The position numbers and the translations under genes are program-made. Source: an uncultured Phycisphaerales bacterium (GTDB lineage: Bacteria > Planctomycetota > Phycisphaerae > Tepidisphaerales > Tepidisphaeraceae). From it: a DNA stretch of 64,000 bases. The notes under the pieces are model-generated. The model was not told the origin of the DNA and did no database searches. It saw only the letters and a program-made list of their open reading frames with translations. The stretch lies in NCBI GenBank assembly GCA_963755915.1, contig CAVWLP010000003.1:1344001-1408000 (forward strand), read 5' to 3'. Of the stretch, positions 11,569-20,012 are shown one piece after another. How positions within the stretch are numbered: the first letter of the stretch is position 1; the number at the start of each line of letters is the position of its first letter.

Positions 11569-11970
11569 GTTGCGCTCCTAGTGAGGGACAAGGACGTTTA
11601 GAAACGGTCCGAAGGCGCGAAGTCGAAGAAGAGCCCGCGCCAAACGGCAATCGGGCAACCGATTCACCAGTTCAAATGTGAAGGGGCGGCAGGAGTGTCG
11701 TGTTGGGTCAGTCTACAAAGCGCGCCATGACAACGCCACCCTAAAGTCTCGGGATTGGCGCAAAAGAGCGATAATTCCGGGGAGGTATTGGACATGGCGC
11801 ATTTATCCGATATACTCCCTGTACAACATCCTGTCTCGATCCCTCTCAGAATCTCACCTTAACGGTATAGACACTGGACGTAACGAGCTCGGTTGTAGCG
11901 CACTGACTGGTCCTTATTTCGGCGTCTGCCGTTGACCCTTTGGTACGCACGTTTACCAAAGGATATTTCC

Positions 11971-13338
11971 TTGAGTTTTAGTGAATTGTCATTGTCGGCG
12001 CCGATTCTTCGCGCCGTTGTTTCAGAAGGATACACGATTGCCACGCCGGTACAGGCGCAGGCGATTCCACACGCGCTGCGCGGGCGGGACGTTTTGGGTT
12101 GTGCCCAGACGGGCACGGGAAAGACGGCGGCGTTTGCGCTGCCGATTTTGCATCGGCTGTCGAGCGTTGCCCAAGGCGGCGGCGTGGCACGGCCGCGATG
12201 TCTGGTGCTTTGTCCGACGCGCGAACTGGCTACGCAGATTGGCGACAGTTTTCGCGTTTACGGGAAGCATGTGGGGCTTAAATATGCCGTCGTTTACGGC
12301 GGCGTGGGCGTTGGGCCGCAGGCGGAGATGCTTCGGCGGGGAGTGGATATTCTGGTCGCGACGCCGGGACGGCTGCTCGACCTGCTCGGACAGCGATTAG
12401 CGGATTTGCGCAGCGTCGAGATTCTCGTGCTGGATGAAGCCGATCGAATGCTGGACATGGGGTTCATCCGCGATATTCGAAAAATTATTGCCGGTTTACC
12501 GGCTCGGAAGCAGACGATGCTTTTTTCGGCGACGATGCCGCCGGAGATTCGGCAGTTGTCGGGTTCGATTTTGCGGGATCCGGCGACGGTACAGCTCTCC
12601 CCGGCCTCGTCCACGGCGGAGCGGATCGATCAGTCGGTTTATTTCGTCGATCGAGCCACAAAGCCCGGGCTGCTGGCGCAACTGGTGAACGATTTGCCGA
12701 TTTCCAGGGCGATCGTTTTCACGCGTACCAAGCACGGCGCGGATCGGCTGGTTCGCCGGCTGCACGAAATGGGAATCGCCTCCGAGGCGTTTCATGGCAA
12801 CAAGAGCCAGAACCAGCGGCAGCGGGCGCTGCAGAATTTCCGCAAGGGCAAAACGAGTCTCCTCATCGCTACGGATGTCGCCTCGCGCGGAATCGACGTG
12901 GATGGGATCACGCACATTGTGAATTATGATCTGACCCACGAGCCGGAAACTTATGTTCACCGCATCGGCAGAACCGCCCGCGCAGGCGCCAGCGGTACGG
13001 CGATCTCGTTTTGCGATGCCGAGGAAATGCCGAATCTGAAGGCAATTGAAAAGCTCCTTCGATGCCAGATTCCGGTTAAGACGGCGAAGGGAGTGGTGCA
13101 GAGGCCGGCGCAAAAGCACGCGCAAAGACCCATGCCTCAAGTTCAACAGGCGACTCGAATGGAAAGCCCGAATATCGAGCCTCAGCCGAAGCGTCATCAG
13201 CATGCCCCGCATCCGGCGGCGACGAATCCGCGGCATCCGGGCCAATCGCGGCGGGGGCATTTCCGGGGGAATAATTCTGGGGGGAATCATTCTCGTGGAA
13301 GCCATCCCCATGGGCGAAGGCTGATTCCGGCCTTTTGA
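11971..13338 (+). CDS. rhlE: DEAD-box RNA helicase (RhlE-like)
   Basis: Q motif, AQTGTGKT, PTRELA, TPGRL, DEAD, SAT, HRIGRTAR; basic C-tail; TTG start after AAAGGA. Confidence 0.92.
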   Translation: MSFSELSLSAPILRAVVSEGYTIATPVQAQAIPHALRGRDVLGCAQTGTGKTAAFALPILHRLSSVAQGGGVARPRCLVLCPTRELATQIGDSFRVYGKHVGLKYAVVYGGVGVGPQAEMLRRGVDILVATPGRLLDLLGQRLADLRSVEILVLDEADRMLDMGFIRDIRKIIAGLPARKQTMLFSATMPPEIRQLSGSILRDPATVQLSPASSTAERIDQSVYFVDRATKPGLLAQLVNDLPISRAIVFTRTKHGADRLVRRLHEMGIASEAFHGNKSQNQRQRALQNFRKGKTSLLIATDVASRGIDVDGITHIVNYDLTHEPETYVHRIGRTARAGASGTAISFCDAEEMPNLKAIEKLLRCQIPVKTAKGVVQRPAQKHAQRPMPQVQQATRMESPNIEPQPKRHQHAPHPAATNPRHPGQSRRGHFRGNNSGGNHSRGSHPHGRRLIPAF

Positions 13339-13386
13339 CCGGCCCAAGATGTCCCGCGCGCTGGTATGATGGCGCGGGACAACTTG

Positions 13387-14859
13387 ATGCTGATAGAATC
13401 CCTGTTCCTTCACGCCCAGCGTCAACCGGAGGCCTTGGCCATCATCGATGACCAGGGCGAATGCAGCTACAGACAACTTGCGGTGATGGCGGCGGGATTC
13501 GCGAAATATATTTCATCGCAGACGGATCTTCCGCGCGTCGGGTTGCTACTGCCGTCGGGAAGGGGATTCGTCGCCAGTTTTTATGGAACGCTTCTGGCCG
13601 GCAAGGCGGTGGTTCCGATCAATTTTTTGCTGGGCGGGGCTGAAATCGGGCACTGCATTCGGGACAGCGGGATCGACACTGTGGTGACGATTCCACAGCT
13701 TGCCGGTGCGGTGAAAAAGACGGGATTGAAGATTATCGATCTGACGCGGCTTCCACCGGCACCTGCGCCGACCGCGGGGGCAGAGCTGCCACCCTTTCCA
13801 TCCACGGACACGGACGCCATGGCAGTGCTGATGTACACGAGCGGTACCAGCGGATTGCCCAAAGGTGTGCCGCTGACTTTCGGCAACCTTCAGAGCGACG
13901 TGGATGCGGCCATCGCTTACATGGATTTCCAGACCCGGCACAAATTCCTGGGGATCATCCCGCTGTTTCACGTCTTCGGAATGATCGCGATGATGCTGGC
14001 GCCGATCCAACTAGGAGCGACGGCGGTTTATATGGCGCGATTCAGTCCGCTCGGCGCGGTGAAGGCAATCAAAGAGCATGGGATATCGCTCGTGCTGGGC
14101 GTGCCGAGCATGTTCGCGGCGATGGCCCGGCTCAAAGAGGCCTCGGCTGACGATTTCAAGACGATCTTCGCGATGATCAGCGGGGGTGAGCCGTTGCCGG
14201 CGGCTCTTTATGAAGCGTTTCGATCCCGGTTTGGCGTGACTTTGCATGAAGCCTACGGGATGACGGAGACGAGCCTGGCGATTTCCGTCAACACGCCACA
14301 GCATCAAAAGCGGGGCAGTGTGGGCAAGACGATTCCGGGCATGGAAGTCGCGTTTCTGGATGATGAAGGGAAGGCTGTGCCTCCGGGAGAGCCGGGCGAA
14401 ATCTGTGTGAAGGGCCCGATGGTGATGAAGGGGTATTTTAATCTTCCTGGTGAAAACGCCGCGTCGTTCACCCCGGATGGATATTTCAAGACGGGCGATA
14501 TTGGGGTGCTCGACGCCGAGGGGTTTCTTCACATCACCGGACGCAGAAAGGATTTGATCATAATCGCCGGCGAGAAGGCGGCTCCGACCGAGATCGAGCA
14601 GATTCTGATGGCTCATCCCGGCGTGGCGGAGGCCGCGGTGGTGGGAAAGAAGGATGCGAGCCGGGGGGAAGTCGTGCTGGCTTTCATTATTCCGCGGGAA
14701 GGAAGCACTCCAACCCTGGAAGACCTTCGCGAATTTTGCCGCCGGCAGGGCCTAGCGCAGTGGAAGGCGCCGCGGGAAATGCGGATTGTGAAGGATTTTC
14801 CTCGTTCTCCGACGGGCAAAGTGCTTAAGCGGGTATTGGCCCTGGGCGTGCGGGATTGA
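13387..14859 (+). CDS. AMP-binding enzyme, long-chain fatty acid--CoA ligase-like
   Basis: YTSGTSGLPKG, YGMTE, TGD, GRRKDLI, PRSPTGK. Confidence 0.88.
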   Translation: MLIESLFLHAQRQPEALAIIDDQGECSYRQLAVMAAGFAKYISSQTDLPRVGLLLPSGRGFVASFYGTLLAGKAVVPINFLLGGAEIGHCIRDSGIDTVVTIPQLAGAVKKTGLKIIDLTRLPPAPAPTAGAELPPFPSTDTDAMAVLMYTSGTSGLPKGVPLTFGNLQSDVDAAIAYMDFQTRHKFLGIIPLFHVFGMIAMMLAPIQLGATAVYMARFSPLGAVKAIKEHGISLVLGVPSMFAAMARLKEASADDFKTIFAMISGGEPLPAALYEAFRSRFGVTLHEAYGMTETSLAISVNTPQHQKRGSVGKTIPGMEVAFLDDEGKAVPPGEPGEICVKGPMVMKGYFNLPGENAASFTPDGYFKTGDIGVLDAEGFLHITGRRKDLIIIAGEKAAPTEIEQILMAHPGVAEAAVVGKKDASRGEVVLAFIIPREGSTPTLEDLREFCRRQGLAQWKAPREMRIVKDFPRSPTGKVLKRVLALGVRD

Positions 14860-14886
14860 TTTGGGTTATCGCGCGGGGCAACGAGG

Positions 14887-15267
14887 TCATCGTTTTTTTG
14901 TCTCGCGGAAAACGGATGCCGAGGCCAGGGTGAACAAGATCACCTCTTCGCCGGTAATGGTGCTGATATCGTGATGAAGGCTTATGACCTTTATGCCGGT
15001 GACGTCCTGGATCATAGCTTCCATGCGCGGCCTGGCGGTTTCAACCAGATGCGTTCGCACCTGCTTGAGAAGGTCTCTTCCCTTCTCTGCGGGTAATGTC
15101 TTGACCAGTTGCTGTTCGGCCGCGGTTAGAACGCCCTTGAGACGAACGACAAGCAGATCATCGATTAGATGAGCCCGGATCTCCTTGGGTCCGCGTCCCA
15201 TGTACTGCTGTTCAAACTGGCCCAATCCCTCGCAAACCAGGGCTTCGATTTCTCCTTTGGTCATCAT
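14887..15267 (-). CDS. DUF2294 / MpsC-family protein
   Basis: GRGPKEIR...LKGVLTAAEQQL...GRDLLKQVR...LHHDIST.TGEE pattern typical of DUF2294. Confidence 0.85.
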   Translation of the reverse strand: MMTKGEIEALVCEGLGQFEQQYMGRGPKEIRAHLIDDLLVVRLKGVLTAAEQQLVKTLPAEKGRDLLKQVRTHLVETARPRMEAMIQDVTGIKVISLHHDISTITGEEVILFTLASASVFRETKKR

Positions 15268-15656
15268 CGCCAAACGTCGCCGGCGAAGCGACGCCTCCGT
15301 TCAACGCGGTGTTTGGCTTGTATTATACCTCCGGTCGGATCAATTCTCATTTACGTTGCAAGGTGTTGCGAGGCGGCCGCGGAGGTTGAAACGACGACTG
15401 GGCCGGTGGTGCAGGTTTTCACCACGGGTACGATAGTGCAGGTTTTTCAACTTGCGCGGGGCATCTCCAAAACAGCGTGGAATAAAATTCCAGGCCGGAA
15501 AAAAAACTGAGCAGCGCCGTTGTTCTGCGCCTACATTCGTGTTACGATTCTTTAGCTTCGAGGCCCAGCAGCGGGCTCGAGGATAGGCCTAAAATCGAAT
15601 CGCCGGACGACAAGATGATGGGCAACCTGGCACTGCCAGGAGGCCAACCAATAAGT

Positions 15657-15709
15657 AAGCCGACGTAAACGAAAGCCAATGGGGGGGCTTCGTTTACGTC
15701 GGCTTTTTT
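15657..15709 (+). terminator. Intrinsic terminator in the 5' leader of the acyl-ACP desaturase gene
   Basis: AAGCCGACGTAAACGAA(A)GCC...GGCTTCGTTTACGTCGGCTT followed by a T-run, ~45 nt before the ATG. Confidence 0.8.
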
Positions 15710-15752
15710 GTTGGCTACACGCGCCCGACCCGGCGCGGCAAAGGAAGAGGAG

Positions 15753-16745
15753 ATGACGGTAGAATCGCCCGCCCAAATTCAGATCGAAATGCTCCGAGGC
15801 CTCAAGAGTGAGGTGGCGGACAATTTGCTCCTCTCGCCGATCGATGAGGCCTGGCAGCCGAGCGATTACCTTCCCGATCTGAGCGCGGACGATTGGGTCA
15901 TTCAGGTGCAACAATTCAAAGACCATGCGAAAGATTTGGATGACGAACTTCTCGTCGTTCTGGTCGCGGACATGGTCACCGAGGAAGCGCTGCCCAGCTA
16001 TTCGATAGCGCTGAACCTCCTGGCGGAAGATCCTACCGGCACCAGCGACTGCCCCTGGGCCCGATGGATGCGGGGATGGACGGCGGAGGAAAATCGGCAT
16101 GGAGACCTGCTCAATGCCTACCTCCGGCTCACCGGACGGGTCGACATGCGGGCGGTGGAAGTCACCATTCACCATTTGCTGAACAATGGGTTCAATCCCC
16201 AGGCGTATCCCGATCTCTATGGCGGCCTGGTTTACACGGCGTTTCAGGAACGCGCCACGAAGCTGTCCCATGCGAATGTGGCCCGCCTGGCTGAAGCGCG
16301 GGGTGACGCCAATTTGAGTCGGATTTGCCTCAAAATCGCCGGCGACGAAGCACGGCATGAGGCGTTCTACACCCGAATCATGTCACGGGTGATGGACGAA
16401 GACCCGGAGGGGGGGCTGTTGACGTTTCGCAGCATGATGCGGCGAATCATCGCCATGCCGGGACGACTGATGTTTGACGGAAAAGACCCATCTCTTTTCG
16501 ACCATTTTGCGTCGGTCGCGCAGCGCACCCGCATCTACACGATCCGAGATTATGCGGCGATCGCCGACCATCTCCTCAAGACCTGGCGGGTGGCGGACCG
16601 CTGCGTCTCCGGAAAGGCGGCCCGCGCCCAGGAATATCTGTGCGGATTGCCTCGCCAATACGAGGAAATGGCCCAAAAAATCGAGCGAAAACTGGAGGCA
16701 GAGCCGCGCTACCCCTTCAGTTGGATCTATGATCGGGTTGCTTAA
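15753..16745 (+). CDS. Soluble acyl-ACP desaturase (diiron, DesA1/stearoyl-ACP type)
   Basis: WQPSDYLP, TEEALPSY, WTAEENRHG, FQERAT, DEARHE diiron motifs; GAGGAG RBS. Confidence 0.93.
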   Translation: MTVESPAQIQIEMLRGLKSEVADNLLLSPIDEAWQPSDYLPDLSADDWVIQVQQFKDHAKDLDDELLVVLVADMVTEEALPSYSIALNLLAEDPTGTSDCPWARWMRGWTAEENRHGDLLNAYLRLTGRVDMRAVEVTIHHLLNNGFNPQAYPDLYGGLVYTAFQERATKLSHANVARLAEARGDANLSRICLKIAGDEARHEAFYTRIMSRVMDEDPEGGLLTFRSMMRRIIAMPGRLMFDGKDPSLFDHFASVAQRTRIYTIRDYAAIADHLLKTWRVADRCVSGKAARAQEYLCGLPRQYEEMAQKIERKLEAEPRYPFSWIYDRVA

Positions 16746-17020
16746 CCCGAATGAACAGTATATGAGATTCCATCGGCAAGCTGAACGTCAAAATGGTGGG
16801 CGCGTAAGCCTATTTGCGCCGATACAATATTCGTTGGCAGCATGAATCTCATAGATGTTGACAATAATTTAACGGGCTTGCGAGTGCCCACGGTTGTTTT
16901 GGGCCGTCAGGACGCATATAATCGTGCCAGGACATCCGTTAACAAGTAGCGTTTTGCGACCCTTCTTTTGGCCCACACTACTCCGCCTGCCCTGCCGAAT
17001 TACTTTGTGAGGAAGATTCG

Positions 17021-18196
17021 ATGAACCAGGTACCTTCCGACACCATCCAACTTGCGATTCCAGGCAGCGCTCCCGCGTCCAAAGCAGATGCCGCCAAAGT
17101 CAAATTCACCGGCAGCGATCGATTTATCCGCGAATTGCGGCGTCGAGTCGACGCCTATTTCGAACGAACCGGACATTCCCGCCGCGATTGCCCGCAGATG
17201 TACTTCAAGACGGCGACGATCCTGGCCTGGTTTTTTGGCTCTTACCTGCTGCTTCTGTTTTTCGCCTCAAGCTGGTGGACGGTGCTTCCGCTGACGGTGA
17301 TCCTGGGATTGTCGATCGCCGCCATTGGTTTCAATATTCAGCATGACGGCGGTCACAGGGCCTATTCCAATCGGCAATGGGTTAACAAGATCATGGCGCT
17401 GACCCTGGACATGATGGGCGGCAGCTCCTACCTGTGGGATTGGAAGCACAACTCGATTCACCATACCTATCCCAACATCGAGGGACAGGATGATGATATC
17501 AACCTCGGTTTTCTGGGAAGACTTTCGCCGCAACAGCCACGGCTGAAAATCCACCGCCTTCAGGGAATTTACCTCTGGTTCCTCTACGGTTTCATGGCAA
17601 TCAAGTGGCACTTGATCGACGATTTCTACCAGGTCTCCCGAGGACGCATTGGCACGCACAAAATTCCACGACCCAAAGGCAAGGACCTGGTCATTTTCAT
17701 CGGCGGCAAAGTTGTATTCGCCTCATTGGCATTCGTTATTCCGATGCTGCTGCACCGGTGGTATGACGTCTTGTTCGTGTATGTCGGAGCCGCCTTTGTC
17801 AGCGGTGTCGTGCTGAGCGTCGTGTTTCAGTTGGCCCATTGTGTCGGGGAAGCTGACTTCCCGATACCCATCCACGATGCCGAAGGCAAAGAGCGAATGG
17901 AAACCGACTGGGCCGTGCACCAGGTGCAGACCACCGTCGATTTCGCCAGGAGCAACCCAATCCTTTGCTGGTTCCTTGGCGGCCTGAATTTCCAGATCGA
18001 GCATCACCTCTTCCACAAGATTTGCCACGTGCACTATCCGGCGCTGTCGAAGCTGGTCGAGGAAGCGTGCAACGAATTCGGCCTGAAGTATGCGGAACAC
18101 AAAACAATGTTCTCCGCGGTAGGCTCGCATTTCAGATGGCTTGTGGAAATGGGGCGCCCGCCGGTTGCTTTGGCGGATCCGATGCCCCAACCATGA
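17021..18196 (+). CDS. Membrane-bound acyl-CoA/fatty acid desaturase
   Basis: His boxes HDGGH, HNSIHH, QIEHH. Confidence 0.93.
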   Translation: MNQVPSDTIQLAIPGSAPASKADAAKVKFTGSDRFIRELRRRVDAYFERTGHSRRDCPQMYFKTATILAWFFGSYLLLLFFASSWWTVLPLTVILGLSIAAIGFNIQHDGGHRAYSNRQWVNKIMALTLDMMGGSSYLWDWKHNSIHHTYPNIEGQDDDINLGFLGRLSPQQPRLKIHRLQGIYLWFLYGFMAIKWHLIDDFYQVSRGRIGTHKIPRPKGKDLVIFIGGKVVFASLAFVIPMLLHRWYDVLFVYVGAAFVSGVVLSVVFQLAHCVGEADFPIPIHDAEGKERMETDWAVHQVQTTVDFARSNPILCWFLGGLNFQIEHHLFHKICHVHYPALSKLVEEACNEFGLKYAEHKTMFSAVGSHFRWLVEMGRPPVALADPMPQP

Positions 18197-18209
18197 TTGA
18201 TGCCGACCG

Positions 18210-20012
18210 TTAAGTCGGCTCATCTACGCCCGACATCATGGCCCGTTGCAACAGGAAATCCCACTGTGCGTTCGTCGTCCTGGGGATCGCCACCACGCGC
18301 TCGATCAAGACGCGGCTTGAAGCGCTGAGATGGTCGGAAGACGCCATTGCGAGCGCCGAACTGCTCAGGTCGTTGACCAGCAGATGAAAGATCACCGAAA
18401 CGATCTCCAGCGGCACGCCGGAATAAACAGCATTTTCCGCGACCAATTGCCCATACGCGATCGTCGCCATGCCTTGTCCCAACGCAATGGCCGTCTGCGC
18501 ATTCGCCTCCGGTCTACGGGATTGGCTTCGCGCAAATAATCGAAACGCCTTGGCCTGCCGGGCGAAAATGCGCACGTTCGATACCGATTTCAGCGGCCGA
18601 TACGCCTCCAGACAGCGGCGAAACCTGATCGAATTGATTTGCCCGCTTCGGGCCCCCATCAGATAAATATTTTCCGAACCGGTCCCATGTCCCCGGTTGA
18701 ATTCAAGAACCGGCAGATTGAGATCGGCGTCATTAAAATATCCAGCTATGAACTGCGCCGTCAGTTCCAGGTTGATGTGTACGCTGCCTTCCAGGCTTGG
18801 AATCAACTGCACGTCCCGCAACGCCATTTCGAAATAGGTGTCCGATTCAAACGCCTTGGCGCCCATGCATTCGCTGAGCAGAGAAATGACCTTGACGCCT
18901 TCGGTGCTCACCCGCGCCTTCTGAACGGCGCAAAAGAGCAGATACCGCCGATCATCCGCGTTCGCGGCTTGCACGTAATCGAGCGCACGGTAGGCGTATA
19001 ATTTCATCGCCGTCAGGCGCGCATAGGCCTGCCCCACCGCCGATCCAATATGCGGCATATCGATGACGGGTTTGCCGTAGAGCACACGCCGGGTCAGATG
19101 CGCCAGTGCTTCTTCAAACGCGCGCTCGCAGATGCCGATCGAGCCGAAGCCAAGAAAGAATTTTCCTAGGGTGACGGTGCCGAGCACCGCGTCCCAGGCC
19201 TCCCTTCCCTGGGCGATCAGATCGGCTTCGGGAAGCTGGTGATCTTTGACCTCAAATTCCCCGACGAACGCCGAGCGTATGCCCAGCGTCTCGATTTTCC
19301 GCGCTCGTCCGAATCCCTTCGACTGCGCCGGCCGCAGGGCGAAGAGAATCGGCGTGGCCCGCCGGGCGCGATTTGCATGCCGATCATCCGCTTTTCGCGC
19401 CAGGATGGAGATGATCGAAGCGCAATTCGCATTGCCGATGTAATATTTCGATCCGCCGGCGATCAGACGTCCCGGCTCGCCAGCGGCAACGGTGAATTCG
19501 CTCGCCAGCAAATCCGAACCATGCTCTTTCTCGGAGATACCGAATGCGAATAACGCCCCTTTTTCCAGGGCCGCGACAGCCTCACGCTTCAAGGCGTCAT
19601 TCGATCCCATCAGGATCGCGAAGAGACCCAGAAACGTCACCTGCAGACTGTACCCATGCGCGGGGCTGAAGTAGGCGAAAACTTCCAGGAAGCGGGTGAG
19701 CCTGGGCACGTCGAATTCGTTCCCAGTCGTGGAATATTTTTTTGGCGAGAGGAGTGAGGCGTAGAGTCCGTGAGCTTTCTGGAAGGCGATCCAATCTTCA
19801 TACCACTGCCGGCTCTGGTCCTCGTCTTTAAGAGCCCGCAGCCCCTTGTTCTCGAAGAACTCCACCAGCTTTTGCAGCGAGGGATCGCGAAAAAAAATAT
19901 TGGCGGCACTGGATCGCCGCCGGGTGGAAAAGATCAGTGGATAGATCGCATCGCGGATGGCGGCGGTGGATTCACCGTGAGCTGGGCCGCCAGGCTCGAT
20001 GGGCTTATCCAT
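18210..20012 (-). CDS. Acyl-CoA dehydrogenase family protein
   Basis: FGISEKEHGSD, GSKYYIGNA, RVLYGKPV, EGSVHIN motifs. Confidence 0.88.
   Translation of the reverse strand: MDKPIEPGGPAHGESTAAIRDAIYPLIFSTRRRSSAANIFFRDPSLQKLVEFFENKGLRALKDEDQSRQWYEDWIAFQKAHGLYASLLSPKKYSTTGNEFDVPRLTRFLEVFAYFSPAHGYSLQVTFLGLFAILMGSNDALKREAVAALEKGALFAFGISEKEHGSDLLASEFTVAAGEPGRLIAGGSKYYIGNANCASIISILARKADDRHANRARRATPILFALRPAQSKGFGRARKIETLGIRSAFVGEFEVKDHQLPEADLIAQGREAWDAVLGTVTLGKFFLGFGSIGICERAFEEALAHLTRRVLYGKPVIDMPHIGSAVGQAYARLTAMKLYAYRALDYVQAANADDRRYLLFCAVQKARVSTEGVKVISLLSECMGAKAFESDTYFEMALRDVQLIPSLEGSVHINLELTAQFIAGYFNDADLNLPVLEFNRGHGTGSENIYLMGARSGQINSIRFRRCLEAYRPLKSVSNVRIFARQAKAFRLFARSQSRRPEANAQTAIALGQGMATIAYGQLVAENAVYSGVPLEIVSVIFHLLVNDLSSSALAMASSDHLSASSRVLIERVVAIPRTTNAQWDFLLQRAMMSGVDEPT

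Follow-up and report, generated by a model that had tools for sequence, protein, structure and literature searches.

A conserved promoter–leader unit divergent from a DUF2294 gene in Phycisphaerae, a putative conditional terminator possibly clamped by the DUF2294 protein

In the ribonucleic antiterminator (RAT) systems of BglG, SacY and LicT, a hairpin overlaps the 5′ arm of a terminator, several copies are present per genome, the regulator is often encoded beside its target, and termination is the default. In attenuation by ANTAR proteins (AmiR/NasR/EutV), PyrR or HutP, a protein-stabilised antiterminator stands against a terminator and a signal-sensing regulator lies in or beside the regulon; the ANTAR targets are two small hexaloop hairpins, of which the second overlaps the terminator, and the HutP and PyrR sites are other motifs. 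The NAD+-I, xanthine/NMT1 and Li+/Na+ classes are terminator-type ON riboswitches that consist of an extended hairpin with conserved internal loops. Here, we describe a leader RNA at positions 15520–15752 of a 64,000-nucleotide stretch of DNA from an uncultured Phycisphaerales bacterium (contig CAVWLP010000003.1, positions 1,344,001–1,408,000; hereafter the window), located between an acyl-ACP desaturase gene and a gene of the DUF2294/MpsC family (PF10057), whose family name comes from the Staphylococcus aureus mpsABC locus. In our reading, this region is a complete promoter–leader unit of a new family of conditional-terminator leaders, found in Phycisphaerae and other Planctomycetota and possibly clamped by the divergently encoded DUF2294 "type A" protein; we give this reading as a whole a probability of roughly 0.4.

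The leader resembles the RAT systems in its short conserved hairpin with internal loops that overlaps the 5′ arm of a terminator, in its presence in multiple copies before different operons, and in having a candidate regulator encoded beside the target, and its mode of action may be analogous to that of RAT and the co-antiterminator (CAT) domain. However, it has neither sequence nor structural likeness to RAT, its hairpin is about twice as long, its targets are stress genes instead of sugar operons, and the neighbouring protein matches PF10057 only, with no CAT or PRD domains. With the three riboswitch classes it shares a single irregular hairpin, directly upstream of open reading frames (ORFs), in which the 3′ strand of the basal helix (P1) is common to the terminator. 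In contrast to these classes, it has no match in Rfam 15, a gene set that indicates no single metabolite, a P1 that is invariant in sequence, and a near-obligate link to a protein gene outside the leader's control. One long irregular hairpin followed by a terminator also differs from the ANTAR motif as commonly defined, and none of the protein domains of the ANTAR, PyrR and HutP systems is present here. Unlike the S. aureus mpsABC locus, the leader has no MpsAB/DabAB context, and DUF2294 occurs around it as a pair of paralogs: type A (~120–136 bits), to which the window's gene belongs and which lies beside a leader and not behind one, and type B (~60–83 bits), which lies behind a leader. The inorganic-carbon context of MpsAB/DabAB, which an earlier note on this DNA had brought in, is irrelevant here, as the neighbours are of a stress/dormancy type and the second DUF2294 paralog is the main target.

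The leader RNA family and its folds

A DNA search with window positions 15591–15715 returned many places in related genomes that are ~70% identical, several per genome and often clustered. Eighteen such stretches were aligned, RNAalifold predicted for them a hairpin and a terminator with compensatory changes, and a covariance model, R1, was built from the alignment. R1 finds 11 copies in the window's own genome (85.8–107.6 bits), one only inside the window; a further 13 matches in this genome all score 35.4 bits or less and are mostly antisense readings of terminator palindromes. The remaining ten copies form three clusters of three to four copies within 3–23 kb (C2:1451994–1454603, C2:2128484–2151570 and C3:53675–67147) and lie upstream of genes for SPFH, small membrane proteins, phosphoketolase and DUF2294-B; the phosphoketolase copy after C3:67024 appears broken (51-aa ORF). 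In the same family, 12 of 40 other genomes carry between 1 and 13 copies each, and under stricter filters copies were found in 5 of 150 other genomes sampled across the phylum. From the relatives we collected 77 distinct full-length copies, and metagenome contigs gave 76 additional matches.

The leader RNA and its association with DUF2294 appear to be new, being absent from Rfam 15 and from the literature searched. Scanning window positions 14500–16500 with cmscan against the 4227 models of Rfam 15 at E up to 10 gave eight matches, none above 25 bits and all well short of the gathering scores (miRNA, snoRNA, CRISPR-DR, STnc240, and ylbH with 15.3 against 50 bits), and eight other leader-bearing loci gave none at E up to 0.1; the element is, as the earlier note had supposed, no named Rfam motif. 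The full-text searches made turned up neither a description of the leader RNA or its DUF2294 association nor a function in print for DUF2294/MpsC/YbcI. We also considered a repeat or mobile element: an own-genome DNA search with positions 15540–15752 matched only this region itself and its own palindrome, and because the copies are ~70% alike they are not a recent mobile repeat.

Folded as RNA, window positions 15549–15760 reach −96.4 kcal/mol (z = −5.36), and none of 200 shuffles is as stable. From the base upward, the consensus sensor hairpin consists of P1 (UCGG:CCGA), a 3×3 purine-rich loop (AYG/AAG) and P1a (ACU:AGU), with P1b, P2 and P3 toward the tip. Its base is a helix, UCGGAUGACU/AGUAAGCCGA, that is invariant across the 77 distinct copies, and its distal stems covary. 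In the alignment of these copies, which was fitted to the covariance model and favours its structure, 93.1% of cells are paired compared with 83.4% in shuffles, 23 of 34 pairs have changed on both sides, and sliding the partner lowers pairing to 32–44%. The covariation of P1b, P2 and P3 scores 0.271 against 0.158 in shuffles, a value reached by none of 500; P1b is AU in 43 copies, GU in 20 and GC in 11, and one pair of P2 is CG in 38 and UA in 34. The minimum free energy (MFE) fold of the isolated hairpin contains P1 in all 77 copies, P1a in 75 and P2 in 76. On this model-fitted alignment, the leader has the conserved, structured and covarying domain that is expected of a riboswitch aptamer. 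The leader that the earlier note had read from a single locus is thus a real and conserved terminator-bearing cis element, as the copies in its own genome and in relatives and the covarying stems attest.

The terminator, predicted from sequence, has the G+C-rich stem-loop and U-run on the transcribed strand that are typical of intrinsic terminators; 15 of its 22 pairs show changes on both sides and its base, AAGCCGACG:CGUCGGCUU, hardly varies. AAGCCGA, the 3′ strand of the basal helix, is at the same time the start of the terminator 5′ arm, with alignment columns 73–79 common to both, and terminator and P1 are therefore mutually exclusive, as the expression platform and closing helix of a riboswitch are. 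In the window, the first 7–9 nt of the terminator stem (AAGCCGACG) also belong to the sensor hairpin, in its basal helix and loop, and the computed energies are −79.7 kcal/mol with the terminator formed and −60.3 kcal/mol with P1 enforced, the terminator state being ~19 kcal/mol more stable. The leader is probably a cis-acting conditional terminator. The earlier note had drawn a different alternative fold, in which an upstream segment that mimics the terminator 5′ arm pairs with the 3′ arm. Across the family, this segment pairs best with the 5′ arm and hence mimics the 3′ arm; the pairing with the 3′ arm is compatible in 86.6% of cells, yet 260 of 500 shuffles reach this, so that it has no covariation support, and enforcing it in the window copy gives −57.6 kcal/mol, which makes it less stable than the P1 fold by ~3 kcal/mol.

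In its architecture, the leader resembles a classic terminator riboswitch: its internal loops are conserved, its distal stems covary, and the 3′ strand of P1 also serves the terminator. The hairpin might be an aptamer that senses a small molecule or an ion in a new ON riboswitch, in which a ligand in the internal loops stabilises P1 and blocks the terminator, and DUF2294-A and -B would be only the regulon core or neighbours. Many copies per genome before unrelated genes would suit such a riboswitch, as would a DUF2294-A protein with no recognisable nucleic-acid-binding feature, and diverged variants of the locus have near-consensus sigma-70-type promoters and no other conserved box, which suggests regulation at the RNA level.

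Linkage to DUF2294 and a proposed switch

Among the 41 genomes of the family, PF10057 is present in 10 (one of them, G014, unpublished), all of which carry the leader. Neither is present in 28, and the other 3 have leader matches without PF10057. The latter hold only degenerate copies (45.6–79.5 bits): three of these (45.6–62.1 bits) lack a U-tract, are disrupted at the terminator base and differ at invariant positions, and the 79.5-bit copy of G023 has a mismatch in P1a. DUF2294 is found in four of the five leader-positive genomes of the phylum sample, the exception being 89% complete. Seven more genomes of this sample are PF10057-positive with no R1 match under the stricter filters; with the filters off, in six of them a leader of diverged sequence adjoins the DUF2294 gene (E 1.8e-6 to 4.1e-3), directly downstream of it in five and directly upstream in one. 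These variant leaders have the same architecture, with a near-consensus sigma-70-type promoter, and their P1a has changed in a compensatory manner from ACU:AGU to AUU:AAU or AUC:GAU (six sequences, read by eye).

Eighty metagenome loci were picked solely for encoding a type A protein. A divergent leader lies upstream of the type A gene in 68 of them, and in 60 of the 66 loci whose upstream flank exceeds 330 nt, with a median of 194.5 nt from the A start to the leader 5′ end; homologous leaders do stand beside other DUF2294 genes, as one would expect from the earlier note. An additional leader follows A in tandem in 6 of 64 loci. In 29 loci, the divergent leader is followed by a type B gene, and many others are truncated at contig ends. 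The canonical module is a leader-driven B gene back-to-back with A.

This linkage bears on the riboswitch. The type A gene does not lie downstream of the leader, but the two occur together in nearly all loci with enough flank, and no intact leaders were found in the searched genomes that lack DUF2294. In addition, P1 is invariant rather than covarying, and the targets form a broad stress set instead of the transporters and enzymes of one pathway, which would call for an alarmone-like or physical signal. We consider a riboswitch unlikely, though deserving of serious weight.

What would hold the basal helix against so stable a terminator? In the mechanism that we propose, transcription would start a few bases past TACGAT, and the RNA would fold the 5′ hairpin P0 first, followed by the ~60-nt irregular hairpin with its invariant basal helix and purine-rich 3×3 loop. 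The 3′ strand of this helix would double as the beginning of the 5′ arm of the very stable terminator. By default the switch would be off, the terminator displacing the basal helix unaided and stopping transcription 43 nt before the desaturase ATG, and read-through would require a clamp on the basal helix. This clamp would most likely be the divergent type A protein (14887–15273), acting in the manner of a RAT-binding antiterminator, with the leader-controlled type B protein as the primary target of A and a possible feedback partner. The same promoter–leader unit in front of many stress/dormancy-type genes would constitute a regulon, in which the desaturase would be a late entrant. That termination is conditional, which way the switch operates and what acts as its effector are all inferred.

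DUF2294-A is favoured as the effector because it accompanies the leader but is not under its control, because intact leaders were not seen in the searched genomes without DUF2294, because leader and protein change together in other families, and because the helix to be recognised is invariant in sequence. Type A proteins, which carry the JGI name "uncharacterized protein YbcI", are ~79% identical across hundreds of metagenome clusters (90%-identity clusters), and this identity and the invariant basal helix would fit a sequence-specific RNA–protein pair. By analogy with known antiterminators, DUF2294-A might bind the leader RNA directly, for which we see somewhat less than even odds. More doubtful is the wider proposal that DUF2294 (MpsC/YbcI) represents a new class of RNA-binding antiterminators, in which A would clamp the basal helix and open a stress/dormancy regulon in Phycisphaerae, and B would feed back on A.

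The AlphaFold model of DUF2294-A, a confident one (pLDDT 84.9), has the order helix, two strands, two helices, two strands. A sequence search for solved DUF2294 structures gave no matches at E up to 1, a Foldseek search of the PDB with the model gave nothing at E 0.001 or better, and the ESM Atlas held no usable match outside PF10057.

Several observations weigh against a clamp by DUF2294-A. Nothing in the protein or its predicted fold appears to mark it as RNA-binding: it is not basic (pI about 6–8), and a wider fold search reached a best Z of 6.7 with mixed folds, V4R, Bet3, YslB and BcsD-like chains scoring Z about 5–6, below the tool's meaningful level. P1 and P1a are invariant in the 77 copies of the main family, and hence offer no proof by covariation. 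The window copy and its ortholog in the sister genome G001 are off consensus at several conserved positions, and with the native upstream context the MFE fold of the window's nascent transcript is predicted to lack P1; this copy is a divergent member of the family and may be weakened. The linkage between A and the leader could come from the A–B gene pair alone, the leader merely regulating B, and the compared genomes are related, so that co-occurrence counts overstate independence. Finally, DNA-binding factors that act on a shared promoter region are just as typically encoded by divergent genes.

Promoters, read-through and the genes behind the leaders

Neither this promoter nor this terminator of the window was picked up by a generic consensus scan, which is uninformative here because the hexamers are weak and the terminator loop and stem exceed what the scanner allows. 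Taken alone, the promoter call in the window is weak. It gains weight only because the same −35/−10 arrangement recurs upstream of other family members: the family has a conserved CTTGCT-N17-TAnnAT, and the TTGTTC-N17-TACGAT of the window lies at the same relative place. Many copies have a GGAGCC..GGCTCC hairpin after the promoter, at the place that P0 occupies in the window, and P0 would presumably act as a 5′ stabiliser. The promoter, hairpin, core, terminator, T-run and ATG are all present as the earlier note had described them. An A+T-rich block just upstream of the −35 hexamer (ATATTCCGGCAAT in the genus; ATGATACC...GCGGAACAA in metagenome loci) is kept within subgroups and not between them, and might serve as an operator or UP element, or as the promoter from which the type A gene is divergently transcribed.

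A co-oriented, Pfam-supported ORF lies within 260 nt behind 56 of the 77 copies, with a median of 37.5 nt from the leader end to the start codon of the longest ORF and 100 nt or less in 49 of the 56. With so short a spacing, a separate promoter would not fit in between, and these downstream genes must be reached by read-through. A single metatranscriptome contig, from a relative (90–95% alike), bridges window positions 15604–15774, from the terminator into the ORF; this is weak evidence, coming from one run with 5% of the words, and contigs from a relative are uninformative on transcript starts, ends and levels.

The spacing also matters for the possibility that the units are sibling trans-acting small RNAs (sRNAs), each with its own promoter, a ~155-nt transcript and a strong terminator, and that the downstream genes are reached by incidental read-through. 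The conservation of both promoter and terminator and the many copies per genome would be in keeping with sRNAs, and UCGGAUGACU would be single-stranded and seed-like in the terminated form. However, so many co-oriented ORFs at so short a distance are not what independent sRNA genes would show, and the leader changes together with the neighbouring DUF2294 gene in other families. Reverse complements of the candidate seed (9–10-mers of the conserved 5′ segment) show no enrichment in the own genome by a crude test: TCGGATGAC occurs 48 times on the two strands together, nine of these inside copies, against 53 expected. We regard sRNAs as very improbable.

The largest cluster of genes behind leaders is DUF2294/MpsC, with 10 copies. 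Small membrane or uncharacterised proteins are represented by Transgly_assoc (GlsB/YeaQ; nine copies), DUF5670 (lmo0937-like; five), DUF2934 (four), DUF3309, DUF3185 and DUF3300, and stress or regulatory proteins by KaiC (four copies), SPFH/Band_7 (three), YflT, the ribosome hibernation factor family (HPF) and CsrA. The sensors are PAS hybrid histidine kinases. Carbon metabolism is represented by phosphoglucomutase, glycogen phosphorylase, RpiB, class I aldolase, phosphoketolase and GH94, and redox and envelope functions by NDH-2, an SDR and an ice-binding-like protein. Judged from these family names, the set looks like a stress and dormancy-type regulon. The CsrA-family protein (PF02599, 43 bits) lies directly behind a leader copy in G216 (L078:11067–11357, minus strand), and the leader has conserved GGA motifs; a CsrA connection of the leader is conceivable.

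Could DUF2294-A act on DNA instead? It might control the divergent promoter region by binding DNA or in some indirect way, and the leader would be a shared 5′ untranslated module, made up of a 5′ stabiliser and a leaky or otherwise controlled terminator, in which read-through is set by another factor such as temperature, NusA/NusG, Rho or CsrA. The divergent layout of regulator and target, at a median distance of 194.5 nt, would agree with this, as would the conserved blocks at and upstream of the −35 hexamer, the GGA motifs, the CsrA-family gene behind one copy, and the cold- or membrane-type character of some targets (desaturase, ice-binding-like protein). However, the DNA box upstream differs between subgroups and is missing from the variant loci, and conservation is strongest in the transcribed hairpin and the terminator base, not in the promoter. 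Moreover, in five variant loci A stands in tandem upstream of the leader, where the two have no shared promoter region. We see this reading as improbable.

Among the genes behind leaders, an acyl-ACP desaturase occurs only in the window and in G001. Among desaturase orthologs, the leader is present only at 95% identity, and those at L063 (80% identical), L064 (67%) and L067 (64%) have none, which rules out an element specific to the desaturase. The gene appears to be a recent and lineage-specific recruit to the regulon, confined to the two closest genomes.

If our reading of the leader as a conditional terminator with DUF2294-A as its clamp is true, the family would be a new class of cis-regulatory RNA outside Rfam 15 that covaries clearly and counts well over a hundred natural examples, and DUF2294/MpsC/YbcI, a family of thousands of members, would gain its first functional handle. 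It would also offer a view of how a stress/dormancy regulon is wired in the poorly studied Planctomycetota (class Phycisphaerae), by attenuation instead of or besides an alternative sigma factor, and of how such a regulon grows through a spreading promoter–leader cassette, recruiting the desaturase only in the two closest genomes. Were the DUF2294 antiterminator proposal true as well, a paralog pair and a dispersed promoter–leader cassette would together make up a protein–RNA switch.

The locus in the window and in its relatives

The features of the locus and its neighbours are collected in Table 1. The type A protein matches PF10057 over residues 5–117 of 128, with 126.4 bits against a cut-off of 23. 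In the type B remnant (~15400–15507), 32 of 35 residues agree with the C-terminus of the G001 type B protein. Because the sister genome G001 has ~505 more bases at this place (window positions 15360–15510), holding an intact B gene and a second leader copy (L066/L004), the window lineage carries a deletion, and the window formerly contained the module of B with its leader and A.

Table 1. Features of the leader locus and its neighbourhood, in window positions
Feature	Position	Strand	Remarks
Divergent intergenic region	15274–15752		between the PF10057 gene (−) and the acyl-ACP desaturase (+)
DUF2294/MpsC type A gene, 128 aa	14887–15273	−	PF10057 126.4 bits; divergent from the leader; candidate trans-acting partner
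DUF2294 type B gene remnant	about 15400–15510	+	last ~35 codons and stop; 5′ part and own leader copy missing relative to sister genome G001
Promoter-like TTGTTC-N17-TACGAT	15520–15548	+	TTGTTC 15520–15525, 17-nt spacer, TACGAT 15543–15548
5′ hairpin P0 (TCGAGGCCC / GGGCTCGA)	15559–15581	+	formed in the MFE fold; probably at the transcript 5′ end
Leader family copy	15593–15713	+	conserved ~120-nt RNA
Core	15602–15656	+	read from sequence
Conserved sensor hairpin	15603–15663	+	R1 104.8 bits, this copy being in the seed alignment
Sensor hairpin P1 (basal helix)	CCGG 15603–15606 with CCG(A) 15660–15663	+	followed by 3×3 purine-rich loop
Sensor hairpin P1a	15610–15612 with 15654–15656	+	P1b next toward the tip
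Sensor hairpin P2	15621–15623 with 15643–15645	+	
Sensor hairpin P3	15626–15631 with 15635–15640	+	
Predicted intrinsic terminator, ~20-bp stem and TTTTTT	15657–15709	+	stem 15657–15705, T-run 15704–15709
Soluble acyl-ACP desaturase	15753–16745	+	PF03405 409 bits; ATG at 15753, 43 nt after the T-run
DEAD-box helicase	11932–13338		leader neighbourhood
Acyl-CoA synthetase-like AMP-binding enzyme	13366–14859		leader neighbourhood
Membrane fatty-acid desaturase	17021–18196		leader neighbourhood
Acyl-CoA dehydrogenase-like gene	18210–20012	−	leader neighbourhood

The neighbourhood of the leader (window positions 11932–20012) consists of lipid- and cold-type genes, and the second, membrane-type desaturase was not found to be preceded by a leader copy. 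In G001, the ortholog of the soluble desaturase (L004:1885–2873 / L066:2501–3061) is present as two overlapping ORFs, 187 and 229 aa long, rather than as a single ORF of 330 aa, a split that might reflect a frameshift, a pseudogene or an assembly error.

The variant loci hold further sequence of interest in the regions right after the leader terminator (L089:2018–2100, L091:2000–2080 and L090:2062–2166). In two loci, a second conserved stretch (GGCUGAAGUG..GYUGA..GCCC), with no Rfam match, follows the variant terminator directly and may be another structured element. L090 also has a second weak R1-like hairpin and terminator, located upstream of a gene that, from a reading of its N-terminal sequence, is a likely GTP-dependent PEP carboxykinase.

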